Below the pieces are notes generated by a model that ran no database searches, had not been told where the DNA came from, and saw nothing but the letters and a program-made list of their open reading frames with translations. From contig JAYEOW010000023.1 of the NCBI GenBank assembly GCA_034723395.1, positions 1 to 15,413 on the forward strand: a stretch of 15,413 bases of DNA, written 5' to 3'. Both the position numbers and the translations under genes were made by a program. The stretch is from Candidatus Margulisiibacteriota bacterium (lineage in GTDB: Bacteria > Margulisbacteria > WOR-1 > O2-12-FULL-45-9). Shown piece after piece: positions 1 to 15,413 of this stretch. Position 1 is the stretch's first letter. Each line of letters begins with the position of its first letter.

Positions 1-441
1 CTTATGTGCGATCAGGTCGGTCTCCTGGACCGTTCCTAAGATGTCGCCGGTCTTGACCTTGTCCCCTTTTTTAACCCCGGGATTGAATTCCCATTTCTTT
101 TTACGGTCAAGCGCGTTTACCGTAACCCCTCTTTCAAGAAAGGCGCCCGCCTTCTTCTGAATCTCGGCTAAGGGGCGTTGAATTCCATCGAAAATCGAGG
201 TCATTAGTCCCGGTCCGAGCTCGACCGAGAGGGGCATGCCGGTCGATACGACCGGATCGCCAACGCCAGTGCCTGCGGTCTCTTCATAGACCTGGATAGA
301 GGCTTTCTCGCCTTGAAGTTCGATGATCTCGCCGATAATTCCCTGCTCGCCGACCTTAACCACATCTGCCATCTTTGCGTTAGGGATCCCTTCGGCAACG
401 ACCAGCGGCCCCGCAACTTTTATTATTTTTCCTTTGTTCAT
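1..441 (-). CDS. atpA: A/V-type ATP synthase subunit A, N-terminal 147 codons (runs off the window)
   Basis: Not in the ORF track; translated by hand from the ATG at 441: MNKGKIIKVAGPLVVAEGIPNAKMADVVKVGEQGIIGEIIELQGEKASIQVYEETAG...PLSVELGPGLMTSIFDGIQRPL, which are hallmark A/V-ATPase subunit A motifs. ATGA overlap with the subunit F stop. Confidence 0.97.
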   Translation of the reverse strand, partial: MNKGKIIKVAGPLVVAEGIPNAKMADVVKVGEQGIIGEIIELQGEKASIQVYEETAGTGVGDPVVSTGMPLSVELGPGLMTSIFDGIQRPLAEIQKKAGAFLERGVTVNALDRKKKWEFNPGVKKGDKVKTGDILGTVQETDLIAHK

Positions 442-758
442 TGTCTAATTATTACCTCCGCGCCTATAGAATTTTTAACCAGGTTTTGGATCTTTCCCGA
501 TGCAATACCGATGCTTCCCCGGTTGTCCGGGATCATCACTATATTGATGTCTGCTTTTTTGTTCAGTTTACCTATCTCTTCCTGCAGATCGGCTGCTAAT
601 CTTTCGGTAATAAAGATCAAGGCTGGTTCCCTTTTGGCGGTCGCTTCATCCAAAGCGCGCCGGGCATCCGTTTCACTCTCGGCCGGGAATGTTTCGATCC
701 CCAGGATCTGCAGCGGGGCTATTAGATATTTGGGCGCGATGAATTTTATTTTATGCAT
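438..758 (-). CDS. atpF: A/V-type ATP synthase subunit F
   Basis: 106 aa with LGIETF, LIFITE, IVMIPD and C-terminal LVKNSIGAEV; lies between subunits C and A. Confidence 0.92.
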   Translation of the reverse strand: MHKIKFIAPKYLIAPLQILGIETFPAESETDARRALDEATAKREPALIFITERLAADLQEEIGKLNKKADINIVMIPDNRGSIGIASGKIQNLVKNSIGAEVIIRQ

Positions 759-1378
759 TAGTAGGATACCCTAAGCCGTTCTTTGATCTGTTCATTCTTG
801 ACATAATTCTGTTTGCAGATGAACATGAACCTTAAAGTCTTAATTTCGGCCTGTTTAGCCATATAGAATCCGACCAGCGGTTCAACTCCTGAATTTACGT
901 ACTTTGCCTTCCTGAATTTTTCGACGATAAAATTATCGATCTCTTTTTCGATCAGATGGATAGGGAGGGAGAGATCGAGGAAATCAAATTCCATGCCGGG
1001 CATCGGCTTTTCACCTTTGCGCAGGCTGGTACGGACCTTTTCCAGCCCGATTTTATTATTGGCCATCTGCCGGATCAGCGGAGAGGACGCGTTTTTGAGG
1101 GCCGAATAATTATCTTCGACCAGCGCCTGGATGATCTCGTTCCCCGGCGCAAGTTTGTTCATCAGTTTGACCAGGGCTTTCTTCTCCAGTTCGAACAACT
1201 CTTCAAAATCGAAGGGGTGTTTTAATTTCGGCAGGGTTTCGGCATACGGGGTCTCAGACAGGATATTAAATGCCGTTTCAAAATCGTCTGCGACTGCCAT
1301 CCGCTCCAGTTGGGGAGGGGTAACCAGCCTTGCTTCCAAAGCCCTTATTCTGGCAACTCCGTAATAAAATTTATCCAT
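758..1378 (-). CDS. atpC: A/V-type ATP synthase subunit C (d), internally shortened
   Basis: N-terminal YGVARIRALEARL..LSETPY and C-terminal GVEPLVGFYMAKQAEIKTLR..IKERLR match subunit C; only 206 aa; operon position fits. Confidence 0.88.
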   Translation of the reverse strand: MDKFYYGVARIRALEARLVTPPQLERMAVADDFETAFNILSETPYAETLPKLKHPFDFEELFELEKKALVKLMNKLAPGNEIIQALVEDNYSALKNASSPLIRQMANNKIGLEKVRTSLRKGEKPMPGMEFDFLDLSLPIHLIEKEIDNFIVEKFRKAKYVNSGVEPLVGFYMAKQAEIKTLRFMFICKQNYVKNEQIKERLRVSY

Positions 1379-1724
1379 AAAGTATCTTTGCCGCCTTGAC
1401 TTCGCTGTCTTCCCTCAGTTTTACAAGCTCAGCGCCAGAAATTTCTTTCTCCTTTTTAATCTCTTTGTAGATAGAGCCTAAGATCTTCTGTTTTTCTTCG
1501 AGCAGGGCTTTTTTTGCGGAAAGCCGCGCGGGAACGATTAACGCCCGCTTTTTTTCTTCGGCCTTGCGCTTTGCCTCTTCGATGATCCCAGCTTTTAACT
1601 CCGCGCTTTGCCGCGCTTGCATTTTTTCGAGCTGCGCGAGATTTTCATCGTGCTCCTTTCTCAGCGCAGCCGCCTCGGCGCTTGCTTCTTCAATTATCCG
1701 CTTTTCGATCTCTTTTATCGACAT
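1371..1724 (-). CDS. atpE: A/V-type ATP synthase subunit E, internally shortened
   Basis: Coiled-coil N-terminus (IEKRIIEEA..ARLSAKKALLEEKQ) and the typical terminal helix (LREDSEVKAAKILYG); lies between K and C; only 117 aa. Confidence 0.85.
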   Translation of the reverse strand: MSIKEIEKRIIEEASAEAAALRKEHDENLAQLEKMQARQSAELKAGIIEEAKRKAEEKKRALIVPARLSAKKALLEEKQKILGSIYKEIKKEKEISGAELVKLREDSEVKAAKILYG

Positions 1725-2195
1725 CTAGAGTGATATTCCGCTCACCATTAAAATTGTTGCTAACAACCCGATGACCGCGTAGGTCTCGACCATTGCCGGC
1801 ATAATGATCGCTTTACCAACTTCTTCCGGCCTTTTTGCGATCAGGTGGATGCCCGAAGCCGAAGCCTTCCCTTGATAGATCCCCGAGATCAGTCCGGTAA
1901 ATCCGACCGGCAGGGCGCTAAAAAGGAGCGCTAGTCCTGCCATTGGGGAAACCGCAGTTCCTCCCGCAAGCAGCCCGATCTTCATCATGATGTAGAATCC
2001 GCCTAAAAACCCGTAGAAACCCTGGGTCCCCGGAAGGGCGACCATAACCAGCAGCCTTCCGAACTTTTCCGGGTCTTCTGTCAAAACTCCGCCGGCCGCT
2101 TCACCCGCGATCGCTACCCCCCAAGCCGAACCGATCCCTCCCAGTAAAACCGCCAATGCAACCCCGCCAATTGATAACGCTAAACCTAGATCCAT
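1725..2195 (-). CDS. atpK: A/V-type ATP synthase subunit K (c-ring proteolipid, 4 TM, Na+-type signature)
   Basis: 156 aa hydrophobic protein with GIGSAWGV, LPGTQGFYGF, SGIYQGK and MVETYA motifs as in Enterococcus hirae NtpK; GGAGGG Shine-Dalgarno upstream. Confidence 0.96.
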   Translation of the reverse strand: MDLGLALSIGGVALAVLLGGIGSAWGVAIAGEAAGGVLTEDPEKFGRLLVMVALPGTQGFYGFLGGFYIMMKIGLLAGGTAVSPMAGLALLFSALPVGFTGLISGIYQGKASASGIHLIAKRPEEVGKAIIMPAMVETYAVIGLLATILMVSGISL

Positions 2196-2197
2196 GA

Positions 2198-4147
2198 TTA
2201 TCCCTCCTTGATGATTGTAAACTCGGCCTCCCGTTTGAAAGGCCTGAATTCCCGACCTCCTCCTTCATAAAATTTACTAAAAAACTCGACCATTTGCAGT
2301 CTGGTTGAGTGGACAAAAGCGCCTAGAGTGCCGATAACTAAATTAAAGATATGGCCAAAGATCAGGAGGATAACCATTAATACAACTCCGAGAATTGGAA
2401 CGCCGCCCTTAACCATTCCTGCTAGAATATTGATAACCGAACCGATGATCGTGGTCGACATACCGAGAGCTAACAGCCGTGAATAGGAGAGGACATCTCC
2501 CATATATCCTGATAATTTGTATAAGCTTAAGAGGCCGCTTAAAAATTTCTGAACGATATTCTTTTTATGCCTTCCTTGAGTTAAGACCATCAAAACCGCT
2601 CCGGCAATGCTTAGATTAGAGGCAAGTTTGACCGTTGACGGGAAGGCGGCGCTGGAGATGATCAGAAATACTAAAGAGCTTAAGAAATAGATCCAGAGGC
2701 CGTCATCCAAAATCGCGTCCATAAACTGCCGGTTCATGATCTTATGGGCCATCTGCAGGCTGATCCCAAAAAGGATCTGGACGACGCCTAAAGCTAAAGA
2801 AAAACCGAGCATGGTCAAAGGATTTTTAATAGGATCGATAATTTGGATCCTGCTCAGAATTGGTAATAAAACTGGAATATCCTTGGGAGTGAATCCAAGA
2901 TAAGATCCGGTCAATAGCCCGACAATTGTTGCTACCCCTCCGCCAAAGATCAATAGATTAAAAAGTTTTACGCCGCCTTTGGGCAACTGGTAACGTCTTA
3001 GAAAATAAAGCGAGAAAGCGATCAGGACCAGCCCGTAGCCAAAGTCTCCCAGGCATATTCCAAAGAAGAGGGCAAAGAAAAAAGAGAGGGGGCCGGTCGG
3101 GTCGAGCTCATCCGGTTTTGGAGTGCCGTAAATATTGGTGATCAATTCAAAAGGGGAGAGCGCCTTTGCGTTCTTTAGCGCGACCGGAGGTTTTTCTCCC
3201 TTTCGCGGACCAATTTTCGAAACCGCTGCTTCAGGAGTTATCTGCGCAAGCCGCTTCAGGAGCTTTTCGTAATCTGATTTTTTTATCCAGCCTTCGACCA
3301 CGAACGTATAACTGGTATCGATAAATTTATTTTTGGCCTCGGCGATCGATTTATTATCGAGGTTGTGATCGTAAATATATTTTATCTTATCGAGATGGCT
3401 TAGTAGCTGTTTTGCCTCTTTAACATCTTCTTCGATATCTTTTTCGGCGTCGGACAGGATATGCTGTAGTTTTTTTATCTCTTCTCCGGGCGTTTTTTCA
3501 GATATGGGGAGGATGATCTGTTCAAAACCGGTCTTTGACAGAAAATTGACCAGATCATTTTTCTCTGCAGCCAGATAGAGGAGGACCATGTGGGCCTCTT
3601 CTTTGGTCTGTTCGGCGATCACAATATCTACTGCGTCCGAGAATTTTTCGAATCCGCTTTTAAAATCGGCAAAAGCGCCGGTCCTTATCTTTCCGGCGGC
3701 AACGCAGGTTTTAATGCCGCCGCCCAGCTCTTGCAGCGGGACATCCAGTTTCCGCCAGGGGAGGAGTTTTTTAATGTCATTATTCAGTTCGGTTTTAAGG
3801 TTTTTCAGGTTGGTGAGCTTACTTTCGATCCCTTTGCATTTGTCGATAAACTTTTTGCAGTCGAATTCCCGGCAAACGGTGGTGAGCTTTTCTTTGCTGA
3901 TCTCTTTTTTTTCGGTAAAAAAACTTTCGATAAACCCCTTCTTTATCTCGCCGATCGTTTCGAGGAAAGCAATGACCGATTTGATCTCCGCGAGCTGCAG
4001 CTCATATTCCCCAGGTTCTTTGGCGGGAGCTCCCTCTTCGACTTGCTGAATGTCGATAACTTCACTATTTTTAAGTAGATTTACAATCGTATCCTGGTGT
4101 TTTTTAAGGGAGGCGAGATGGATCTTTTGCATCTCTACGATAGACAT
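2198..4147 (-). CDS. atpI: A/V-type ATP synthase subunit I (a)
   Basis: 649 aa; EGWI, YGTPKPDELDPT, FFGICLGDFGYG, DVLSYSRLLALG (essential Arg) and HSTRLQMVEFFSKFYEGGG motifs. Confidence 0.97.
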   Translation of the reverse strand: MSIVEMQKIHLASLKKHQDTIVNLLKNSEVIDIQQVEEGAPAKEPGEYELQLAEIKSVIAFLETIGEIKKGFIESFFTEKKEISKEKLTTVCREFDCKKFIDKCKGIESKLTNLKNLKTELNNDIKKLLPWRKLDVPLQELGGGIKTCVAAGKIRTGAFADFKSGFEKFSDAVDIVIAEQTKEEAHMVLLYLAAEKNDLVNFLSKTGFEQIILPISEKTPGEEIKKLQHILSDAEKDIEEDVKEAKQLLSHLDKIKYIYDHNLDNKSIAEAKNKFIDTSYTFVVEGWIKKSDYEKLLKRLAQITPEAAVSKIGPRKGEKPPVALKNAKALSPFELITNIYGTPKPDELDPTGPLSFFFALFFGICLGDFGYGLVLIAFSLYFLRRYQLPKGGVKLFNLLIFGGGVATIVGLLTGSYLGFTPKDIPVLLPILSRIQIIDPIKNPLTMLGFSLALGVVQILFGISLQMAHKIMNRQFMDAILDDGLWIYFLSSLVFLIISSAAFPSTVKLASNLSIAGAVLMVLTQGRHKKNIVQKFLSGLLSLYKLSGYMGDVLSYSRLLALGMSTTIIGSVINILAGMVKGGVPILGVVLMVILLIFGHIFNLVIGTLGAFVHSTRLQMVEFFSKFYEGGGREFRPFKREAEFTIIKEG

Positions 4148-4440
4148 CGCAGAATTTCCTTTTTCGCCGGGGCAATATTTTGTTTTACGCTCTTTTTAAG
4201 CTCTTTAATCTCTTTTTCCGAATCACTTTCGATCTTTTTTACCTCTGCCTTTGCCTCTGCCTCTGCTTTTTTAACTAGTTCCTGGCCTTCACTTTTCGCC
4301 TTTTTACTTATCTCCTCAAGCTCCTGATCATGTTGTTTCCCGCGCTTTTTCGTATCCAACGCGCACTCCTGCCGCATCTCTTTTACGATCGCCGCCGCCC
4401 GCTCTTCAATTACTTTTATTTTTTGGAGTGTTTCAGACAT
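4135..4440 (-). CDS. A/V-type ATP synthase subunit H/G (peripheral stalk)
   Basis: 101 aa charged coiled coil (ETLQKIKVIEERA..KKAEAEAKAE), first gene of the operon, overlapping the subunit I start. Confidence 0.82.
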   Translation of the reverse strand: MSETLQKIKVIEERAAAIVKEMRQECALDTKKRGKQHDQELEEISKKAKSEGQELVKKAEAEAKAEVKKIESDSEKEIKELKKSVKQNIAPAKKEILRCLS

Positions 4441-9930: not shown

Positions 9931-13973
<4,043 letters not shown>

Positions 13974-13986
<13 letters not shown>

Positions 13987-14783
13987 ATTATATCGTTTCC
14001 TTTAAATACCGGGCCGTCGCTGCATACTTTCTGGTACCCGGATTTGGTTTTAATTACGCATCCCAAGCAAGTGCCAATCCCGCAGGCCATTTTTTGCTCC
14101 ATCGAGACCTGGCAGTCGATCTTATTTTGGAATGCTATATCAGTGATCGCTTTTAACATCGGTTTTGGTCCGCAAGCGTATATGGAGACAATGCCGAATT
14201 CCGAATGACCGAATGACGAATTAAGGAGTTTTAATAATTGATCTGAAACAAGACCTTTCTCTCCATAGCTGCCGTTGTCGGTTGAGACTAGAACTTGATC
14301 GGCAACCAGTTTAAATTCTTTTTCGCAAAGAACTCTATCCCTGTTTTTTGCCCCAATTAAAATAAATAATTTATTTGTCATTTTTAATTTGTCATTTGAC
14401 ATTTGCTCCGCGAGTGTAAGGAGCGGAGCTACTCCCATTCCTCCGCCGACTAAAATTGCGATCTCTTTCTTTTGATCGATCTTAAATCCTTTTCCGAGCG
14501 GACCGAGAATGTCGAGCTCTGATCCGACACTATATTTGGAGAGGAGTTCTGTTCCTTTGCCGACTACTTCATAAAGGAGTTCGAATCGTTTATGTTTCTT
14601 CGACGCGCTATGAATGGAGAGTGGTCTTCGAAGCAATGGATCGTAACCATCACTAACTCTGACGTTAACAAATTGGCCCGGTTCGGCGTGGGATGAGATA
14701 TAGGAGGAAGAAATAATTAACTTGAAATGGTTAGGGGCGACATTTTGATGATCGAGGATCCTGCACTTCTCTTGGATCGACAT
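13974..14783 (-). CDS. pyrK: Dihydroorotate dehydrogenase electron transfer subunit
   Basis: PGQFV, LRRPLSI, GPLGKGF, GGGMGVAP, YACGP and the [2Fe-2S] motif MACGIGTCLGC..VCSDGPVF. Confidence 0.96.
14190..14222. repeat. Degenerate ~7-bp tandem repeat inside pyrK (AATGACG-like)
   Basis: AATGCCG AATTCCG AATGACCG AATGACG AATT on the plus strand; encodes NSSFGHSEFGI. Confidence 0.75.
14373..14407. repeat. 7-bp tandem repeat inside pyrK (ATTTGTC-like), opposite orientation to 14190-14222
   Basis: ATTTGTC ATTTTTA ATTTGTC ATTTGAC ATTTGCT, exact period 7 over 5 units; encodes QMSNDKLKMTN. Confidence 0.78.
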
Positions 14784-14793
14784 ATTATATTAT

Positions 14794-14802
14794 ATTCTAG
14801 CA
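14794..14802 (-). promoter_or_regulatory. Extended -10 promoter (TGCTAGAAT) for pyrK-pyrD
   Basis: TGnTAGAAT ending 10 nt before the ATG at 14783; an overlapping TATAAT at 14789-14794 is an alternative -10. Confidence 0.55.
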
Positions 14803-14817
14803 GAAAATCGAAATTAT

Positions 14818-14826
14818 TGCTATAAT
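14818..14826 (+). promoter_or_regulatory. Extended -10 promoter (TGCTATAAT) for tRNA-Gly
   Basis: Perfect TGnTATAAT ending 10 nt before the tRNA 5' end. Confidence 0.7.
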
Positions 14827-14836
14827 TGAGGTCTAA

Positions 14837-14908
14837 GCGGGCGTAGTTCAGCGGTAGAATGTCTGCTTCCCAAGCAGAGGGTCGTGGGTTCGAATCCCAT
14901 CGCCCGCT
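14837..14908 (+). tRNA. tRNA-Gly (anticodon CCC), CCA not encoded
   Basis: Cloverleaf: acceptor GCGGGCG/CGCCCGC, D arm GTTC/GAAT, anticodon arm TCTGC-TTCCCAA-GCAGA, T arm GTGGG-TTCGAAT-CCCAT, discriminator U; followed by TATT. Confidence 0.97.
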
Positions 14909-14913
14909 TATTT

Positions 14914-14981
14914 AACTAACAACACGAGCCGATTTCATCGGCTCTACAACTGCCAACACGGCCCTTCGGGCCTACAACTAA
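14914..14981. repeat. Two tandem hairpin cassettes CAACAC-[stem-TTC-stem]-TACAACT (REP-like)
   Basis: Unit 1 stem GAGCCGAT/ATCGGCTC (14926-14944); unit 2 stem GGCCC/GGGCC (14960-14972); identical flanks and loop. Confidence 0.8.
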
Positions 14982-14990
14982 TGATATAAT
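14982..14990 (+). promoter_or_regulatory. Extended -10 promoter (TGATATAAT) for the four-helix-bundle gene
   Basis: TGnTATAAT inside the inverted repeat ATGATA-N4-TATCAT; GGAG Shine-Dalgarno at 15012-15015. Confidence 0.55.
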
Positions 14991-15022
14991 TATCATATGT
15001 AGATATTGATTGGAGATTAGTA

Positions 15023-15346
15023 ATGACTTTCAGATTCCTAAAATTCCCAGTTTATGCGGATATAAAAAAATATATTAAGAATATATATTCTATTTCCTCT
15101 CAGTTTCCTAAAGAAGAACAATTTGGAATGATTAACCAATTGAGAAGGGCAGCAACCTCAATTGCATTGAACCTTGCGGAAGGCTCCGATCGAGGTTCGG
15201 ATAAGGATTTTAAACGTTTTATTAATATGTCAATCGGTTCGCTTAATGAGACGGTTGCTGTGCTGGATCTTTCATTGGGAAATGGGCGTGTCAAATCATA
15301 TAAAAACCTAACCGAAATGGTTATCGTTAAATCAACTAAGACCTAA
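15023..15346 (+). CDS. Four helix bundle protein (23S rRNA intervening-sequence protein/Avd-like family), probably 3'-disrupted
   Basis: FPKEEQFGMINQLRRAATSIALNLAEGSDRGSDKDFKRFINMSIGSLNET is the family signature; resemblance is lost after about codon 88, where a transposon-like end begins. Confidence 0.88.
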   Translation: MTFRFLKFPVYADIKKYIKNIYSISSQFPKEEQFGMINQLRRAATSIALNLAEGSDRGSDKDFKRFINMSIGSLNETVAVLDLSLGNGRVKSYKNLTEMVIVKSTKT

Positions 15347-15413
15347 CCGAAATCACCTCCTTGGTTTTTGATCTTCGGGTACCGCTTCTACGTTTTGACT
15401 GATAAGTTTGGTA
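15289..15413. mobile_element. Putative insertion-sequence end (IS21-like), element continues beyond the window
   Basis: Starts TGTCAA and contains a 13-bp direct repeat ACCTAACCGAAAT (15306-15318, 15341-15353) within a longer imperfect repeat; coincides with the break in the four-helix-bundle protein. No transposase visible. Confidence 0.6.

Follow-up and report, generated by a model that had tools for sequence, protein, structure and literature searches.

Heptamer arrays in two loops of PyrK and in other core genes of a Margulisbacteria genome, and their probable kinship with the arms of four-helix-bundle gene cassettes

Two predicted loops of PyrK, encoded in a 15,413-nucleotide stretch of Candidatus Margulisiibacteriota DNA (contig JAYEOW010000023.1; the window), contain the products of short in-frame arrays of degenerate heptamers, and similar arrays occur in other core genes and next to four-helix-bundle genes of this lineage. 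Different heptamers are found at the same spots in relatives, and some in-gene arrays match cassette arms of their own genome; hence the loops have likely been overwritten again and again. On balance we consider it probable that lone five-anchor arrays of the cassette-arm kind are written repeatedly over tolerant loops, with units coming from the lineage's own cassette types.

The window contains pyrG, followed by the minus-strand genes pyrD and pyrK, a tRNA-Gly gene and a four-helix-bundle gene. The pyrK gene (13974..14783, minus strand), coding for the electron-transfer subunit of dihydroorotate dehydrogenase, is an intact ORF of 269 aa and is followed by pyrD (13069-13986, minus strand). 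Its best NCBIfam models (PRK00054, E 3e-64) score below their curated cut-offs, the solved structures 5ksw_B and 1ep3_B are matched at E 1e-42, and the nearest named relatives belong to Margulisiibacteriota/Saganbacteria. Two heptamer arrays inside an intact pyrK had been reported in a first-pass annotation, and Tandem Repeats Finder calls both with period 7. The site-1 tract (14373..14405, minus strand; 4.7 copies) encodes QMSNDKLKMTN (residues 127-137), and the site-2 tract (14190..14222, minus strand; 4.4 copies over 14190-14221) encodes NSSFGHSEFGI (residues 188-198). Assembly error as the origin of the tracts was rejected, as a contig from sequencing run X1 reproduces 13000-15315 without any difference, although X1 is possibly the source DNA itself.

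Site 1 has five AAT anchors at 7-nt spacing and adds codons in frame where a helix ends and in the loop after it. It differs from three further places in the genome by 1-3 mismatches over 28 nt, and 31/33 of its positions are identical to an arm of cassette L250 in the relative genome G004. Site 2 is an array of the AATGMCG family in the opposite orientation; one extra base near 14208-14209 preserves the reading frame, and an unrelated 11-kb contig in run X2 has the same tract minus this base. Its unit family is also found in the arms of cassette C7:99415. The cores of the two tracts, described earlier as complementary, are near-complementary, with 13/21 inverted matches, but the units differ (CAAATGA-type versus CGAATGA/GCCGAAT-type).

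The periodicity resides in the DNA and not in a protein repeat, as had been claimed. Among 5000 synonymous recodings of the same peptide, 0.12% reached the periodicity of site 1, and 3.7% of 5000 reached the ungapped score of site 2, which holds one extra base. At the genome level, the real coding sequences contain 61 tracts, compared to 0-6 in recoded and 0-3 in codon-shuffled versions (three runs each). Since recodings seldom reach the observed scores and the controls yield so few tracts, an artefact of the protein sequence or of codon usage is ruled out, and the proposal that codon-shuffled genes might often produce such tracts by chance was not borne out.

Compared to the solved PyrK 5ksw_B, the segment is longer by four residues at site 1 and by eight residues at site 2. 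The statement that the loops exceed those of a usual PyrK thus holds against this structure, but within the class site 2 shows no excess length over orthologues that lack a tract. In an alignment-based model of PyrK (pLDDT 91.6) site 1 covers the end of a helix (115-130) and the stretch up to a strand (138-145), and both peptides, when mapped as had been suggested, lie in predicted helix-to-strand links.

Alignment of 30 PyrK loci of the class revealed hypervariability of both segments, with unrelated heptamers in different genomes, in agreement with the earlier idea that short repeats are deposited in tolerant protein loops. Across the class, a tract at site 1 lengthens the loop by about 3-4 residues or more, and the site-2 segment is as long in genes with a tract as in those lacking one. 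An ACAACT-type tract, QLTTHNFQLSTI, occupies site 2 in the four closest orthologues, which are 79-80% identical to this PyrK once the loops are set aside; another locus (L299) has a third family, and the gene studied here combines the AATGMCG type with one additional base, the codon count being the same in all. As a different heptamer occupies an identical length in the four closest orthologues, the DNA at site 2 has very probably been replaced in place. In a relative's X2 contig, 206 letters correspond to the 224 that span both tracts here. No near-identical second population that would provide strain-level variation was found.

Arrays at the same two loops extend beyond the class. They were found at sites 1 and 2, respectively, in 9/38 and 23/38 Omnitrophota loci (38 parsed of 45), in 4/9 and 4/9 loci of Planctomycetota-labelled genomes (9 parsed of 12), in 0/8 and 1/8 Nitrospirota, and in 17/64 and 34/64 metagenome loci (64 parsed of 80); seven loci of other groups had none.

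The genome as a whole contains 87 period-7 tracts, compared to 3-21 for periods 5, 8, 10, 11 and 13. Their median length is 31 nt and the maximum is at most 48 nt, and many unit families coexist. Sixty of the 87 tracts are in ORFs; as the coding fraction is 0.91, spacers are richer in tracts per base. The hosts of in-gene tracts include ValRS, LeuRS, ArgRS, MutS, LeuC, IspE, TruB, DapF, PurH and RadA. The order of units is not common to copies within the genome beyond that of shuffled order (20.69 vs 20.65, 188 pairs), which gives no general support for verbatim copying of whole tracts; a 'TAAA' variant, the first hint of such copying, proved to be one recurring unit. There is also no effect of distance within the genome, which speaks against local spreading.

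Five orthologue sets of 27-30 genomes each gave a similar picture: 39 period-7 tracts in ispE, 12 in leuC, 44 in leuRS, 41 in valRS and 24 in pyrK, with any other period yielding at most 11. In all five sets the tracts cluster at few alignment columns, IspE, LeuC, LeuRS and ValRS thus repeating the pattern of PyrK. In LeuC of several genomes, conserved codons (KVKAGKG.VY) are swapped for a tract at equal length.

Two minor observations concern these sets. The LeuC of this genome is closest to that of two genomes from the other family, and the tract is common to them (L099, L100, L101; G000, G018, G029). This likeness across the two families hints at gene transfer, for which reason leuC was omitted from the species tree. 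In ValRS, a CxxC zinc-finger insert has a patchy distribution (L156-L185), and where it is present a heptamer tract often splits the first CxxC.

The neighbourhood of pyrK bears on the view of the first-pass annotation that the two tracts pair with each other as binding sites for the protein of a nearby four-helix-bundle gene, and on the wider form of this view in which the paired tracts are a binding or processing site for a regulator of pyrK-pyrD. This gene (15023..15346, plus strand) is real: it scores 83 bits with TIGR02436 (cut-off 24; profile positions 2-90 of 109) and 87 bits with PF05635 (cut-off 33.8). It is, however, cut at 15287 by the end of a multi-copy element, probably an IS (15287..15413), and has lost its last helix and the downstream arm. 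The element shares 125-127 identical nucleotides with the ends of contigs C5, C9, C10 and C22, and a 1563-nt contig starting at 15287 has a depth of 110 vs 16.8 (about 6.5 times). The remaining upstream arm (14914..14981, plus strand) consists of ACAACT-type heptamers; a pair of short palindromes (about 14924-14945 and 14958-14973) breaks up the array, and the closest homologues (L227, L192, L230, L232 and L222) have the same arm type with the same interruptions. A tRNA-Gly(CCC) gene (14836..14909, plus strand) is located immediately 5' of this cassette; tRNA is the only kind of RNA gene found in 13000-15413, and the tracts lie in pyrK rather than in an rRNA helix.

In favor of a paired regulatory site, the RNA of the non-coding strand of the pyrK segment folds with z -4.0 and the tracts paired, and the synonymous codons retained in common tracts (see below) could reflect a constraint at the DNA level. 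The mRNA strand has z of -0.5, however, and the DNA -1.5, and the pairing is not conserved: 2/30 orthologous segments reach z <= -3 on the non-coding strand, and the tracts are complementary in 2/30 pyrK genes with both tracts and in 2/26 close in-gene tract pairs. A conserved hairpin was rejected on these grounds, and with it the earlier suggestion of a functional inverted pair. A role of the neighbour for the pair was rejected as well, because the gene is broken and its arm is of another type; moreover, a four-helix-bundle gene is present within 1.5 kb of pyrK in 2/30 loci of the class and in 1/160 others. The predicted enrichment of tracts near such genes holds for all tracts within 300 nt (6 vs 0.5 expected), but not for in-gene tracts within 2 kb (2/60 vs 1.5 expected). 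The pyrK tracts most probably have no function as a pair, and we consider regulation by pairing quite improbable.

The preferred reading, overwriting with units of cassette origin, raises the question of which factor sets the unit. In a set of 136 in-gene tracts, same-site units were identical in 1/18 of the closest genome pairs and in 7/263 of the most distant ones, showing that the unit at one site has no phylogenetic signal. Within single genomes, two different genes had an identical unit 17 times vs 5.1 expected (0/1000 GC-class-matched permutations). The unit tracks the genome and not the site.

Nineteen genomes supplied the cassette set of 121 four-helix-bundle genes, after removal of one weak locus from 122; eleven TIGR02436 genes, several of them heptamer-armed, are present in the genome studied here. 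In a control, Bacteroides thetaiotaomicron also scored above the cut-off of the family. A period-7 arm is found within 260 nt of 65/121 genes, compared to 0-17 for other periods, which substantiates the statement in the annotation that heptamer tracts often flank such genes. Thirty-six of the 121 are armed on both sides, mostly in inverted orientation. An ORF between inverted arms, a trait of the 23S rRNA intervening sequence (IVS), is thus seen in cassettes of this lineage, but not in the pyrK pair, which encloses pyrK codons. For the other 56/121 genes no period-7 arm was detected, and part of the arms consist of 6- or 8-mers instead.

Cores of in-gene tracts matched cassette flanks of their own genome at >=24/28 bases in 13/112 cases vs 4.1 expected (0/5000 permutations); the other 99/112 had no close match in the assembled cassette flanks of their genome, and the best donor for pyrK site 1 sits in another genome. 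In genome G022, the site-2 tract of pyrK is 31/33 identical to an arm of the cassette adjoining pyrK. Comparison of 64 armed proteins shows that protein clades track arm units: the unit is common to 29% of pairs with 60-80% identity and to <1% of pairs under 30%. This tracking could be simple co-inheritance of the cassette. Over 31 genomes, which are related and in part incomplete, the cassette count correlates modestly with tract density (rho 0.43, p 0.015); in all these tests p-values overstate the significance as the genomes share ancestry. We conclude that the tracts likely originate from cassette arms. Tracts common to two genes also keep their synonymous codons (102/123 vs 2556/5305, or 48%, in the rest of the gene), in 13 of 14 hand-picked pairs and hence with a biased selection; this fits rewriting from one vocabulary, and also selection on DNA.

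The arrays rarely exceed five anchors, an anchor being an invariant trinucleotide at 7-nt spacing, counted per array. The numbers of arrays with 4, 5, 6 and 7 or more anchors are 61, 45, 7 and 0 in the genome, 79, 71, 2 and 1 in gene loci of relatives, and 41, 39, 3 and 1 in loci of other phyla. The intergenic arrays (26, 19 and 1 with 4, 5 and 6 anchors) show the same drop, and therefore the reading frame does not explain it. In a few cassette flanks the five-anchor arrays have longer tails (5/109 with 7 or more anchors). One paralogue (C46:1942) is homologous to the solved structure 2GSC (E 2e-17), which has five chains and is described as five four-helix bundles in a reference title given in the available text of PMC10053308. 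Within this family, pentameric assembly is exemplified by Xcc0516. Five anchors are as many as the subunits of 2GSC, from which we infer one anchor per subunit.

These observations also bear on local polymerase slippage, in which a tract would grow from resident sequence and point mutations would spread through the array. Some tracts do start in codons that look native (at site 1, CAAAT following E/Q codons), and a Coxiella arm shows strain-level loss of units according to the available text of PMC4990558. Slippage does not account for the restriction to period 7, for the vocabulary common to loci and cassette arms, for the lack of phylogenetic signal at a site or for the sharp five-anchor cap. 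Adjacent units differ mostly by transversions (252/312 are G/T, A/C or A/T changes), and only 7/84 AAT arrays are perfect. With few perfect arrays, the cap and a constant length at site 2, the tracts do not behave as simple sequence repeats or contingency loci, where perfect units vary in copy number by slippage. We regard slippage as very improbable.

The writing itself could proceed as follows. A ring of five four-helix bundles would bind one arm as single-stranded nucleic acid; with one anchor per subunit, the about 31 nt bound would set both the unit family and the length. Repair or recombination by the host might then insert the protected arm-length oligomer into the chromosome. Survivors would be frame-keeping events landing in helix-to-strand links, and the same loops would therefore be hit repeatedly. 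An active part of the four-helix-bundle protein in the writing is a serious possibility, somewhat short of probable. More tentatively, in a widespread system of rewriting, each pentameric paralogue may own a heptamer family, measure five anchors and direct the overwriting of chromosomal sequence, codons of essential genes included, without a transposase or a dedicated reverse transcriptase. The RVT_1 domain (PF00078) has no match in this 97%-complete genome and is present in 10/31 genomes with no relation to tract density, and a search for other partners yielded one Y1 transposase fragment (RAYT/Y1) and one GxxExxY fragment; these three kinds of partner were rejected.

Alternatively, host recombination alone might account for the arrays: arms brought in by mobile cassettes would spread and be exchanged through ectopic gene conversion of short tracts, and the protein would just bind or ride along without shaping what is written. 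Some cassettes (L293, L207) have identical arm copies in direct orientation on their flanks, no dedicated writing enzyme was found, and the G022 tract nearly copies the adjacent arm. Gene conversion, however, has no starting homology for the first invasion of conserved LeuC codons, and both the lack of a common unit order between copies and the absence of a distance effect inside the genome speak against it; the five-anchor cap would need separate selection on the donors. This explanation appears unlikely, though it deserves more weight than slippage or regulation by pairing.

Several known systems resemble the one in which arrays are overwritten in place. STRR and REP are established names of repeat classes, and heptamer repeats were reportedly surveyed by Mrazek in 2007. 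As in STRR-type repeats, the tracts described here are dispersed short period-7 arrays of about four to five units. The heptamer arrays of Xanthomonas and Nostoc prefer about four units, form inverted pairs and have an unexplained origin (PMC4692102), and the dispersed heptamer repeats of Beggiatoaceae have period 7 (PMC4679880). Judging from the available text of both papers, our tracts share with these repeats the period, a favoured copy number of about four, inverted pairing in some cases and the unexplained origin. The published repeats, however, have one unit per genome and are mostly intergenic, whereas here there are dozens of unit families, 60/87 tracts in genes, replacement at fixed sites and a link to a protein family. 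The available text of PMC4692102 and PMC4679880 does not mention 'four helix' or 'four helix bundle'.

The Coxiella S23p IVS, as far as described in the available text of PMC4990558, has three tandem heptamers and a degenerate fourth upstream of the ORF at one locus. As in the cassettes, the same protein family lies between terminal inverted repeats in this 23S rRNA element. Intervening sequences of this class are located in an rRNA helix and are removed from the transcript by RNase III. The cassettes here lie outside rRNA, and a single genome has many paralogues that differ in their units; that text has no counterpart of the pyrK tracts, which are solitary arms within protein-coding genes.

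Rickettsia palindromic elements (RPEs) are likewise selfish DNA that lies in frame in metabolic genes and is tolerated by the fold, but they are palindromes of about 150 bp with a conserved peptide (PMC10969869, available text), and the tracts are tandem arrays of about 31 nt with variable peptides that overwrite one another. In-frame presence within core genes is common to the tracts and to RPE- or MITE-like elements; a palindromic or TIR unit copied as a whole is not seen here, as the tracts are single arms, lack a common unit order and can replace sequence with no gain in length. The tandem repeats of Borgs also change fast inside ORFs; in the available text of PMC9879509 their genic units are multiples of three, perfect, locus-unique and judged to be locally derived, whereas the unit of seven found here is not divisible by three and the arrays are imperfect, capped and common to several loci.

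Diversity-generating retroelements (DGRs) have an Avd-like protein and repeatedly replace a fixed stretch of a gene (available text of PMC10053308). The resemblance of the protein family to DGR Avd and the reuse of sites could suggest an adaptive role, in which the tracts would diversify enzyme loops in a programmed manner as the variable repeats of DGRs do. This genome has no reverse transcriptase, however, there is no template/variable repeat pair and the changes are not adenine-specific. In addition, the targets are inert-looking links of core enzymes, and many lineages have no tracts or decaying ones. We consider an adaptive diversifier extremely improbable. The tracts are kin of known heptamer and IVS-type elements, to which they add the overwriting behaviour.

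Neither in-place heptamer replacement inside genes nor a general link of heptamers to the TIGR02436 family was found in the literature covered, which included few subscription journals and no supplements. In-place replacement, the five-anchor cap and the tracking of units by proteins are regarded as new. They tie together quantitatively two long-standing open questions, heptamer repeats and the role of the '23S rRNA intervening sequence protein' family, with the predictions that each protein clade has its own unit and that the five-anchor cap gives the stoichiometry. A mutational process by which about 11 codons of an essential gene change in one step bears on protein evolution, and overwriting by arrays is relevant to sequence alignments and phylogenetic trees of these lineages. 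If rewriting is guided by the protein, it would be the source of the unexplained bacterial heptamer repeats and an ongoing generator of new loop sequence in core enzymes; a protein that steers the writing would also constitute a compact site-writing tool.

Some further observations were made on cassettes and arrays. Cassettes are often found beside tRNA genes, 11/121 having one upstream, with 12 tRNA calls downstream, and the ACAACT-armed clade (L222, L227, L192, L230, L232) sits in tRNA clusters. Arms without a gene form spacers between tRNA genes, where a role in the processing of tRNA precursors is possible. Four cassettes of this genome have purine-rich arms of 8-mers or mixed 6/8-mers (C29:134325, C46:29790, C15:2346 and C3:3030), and three of them follow a tRNA gene. 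A 4625-aa ORF (C43:9212-23086) carries one in-frame ACAACT tract. The minus strand of window positions 1-4440 holds a putative V/A-type ATPase operon, whose subunits we take to be A, F, a C/D fragment, E, K, I and a G-like one. At pyrK site 1 of three loci (L020, L027, L030), REP-like palindromes are located in frame within the arrays (peptides such as ACLPDRQ and PAGRQ); such palindromes within heptamer arrays, both in cassette arms and in pyrK, suggest a second array-targeting element.
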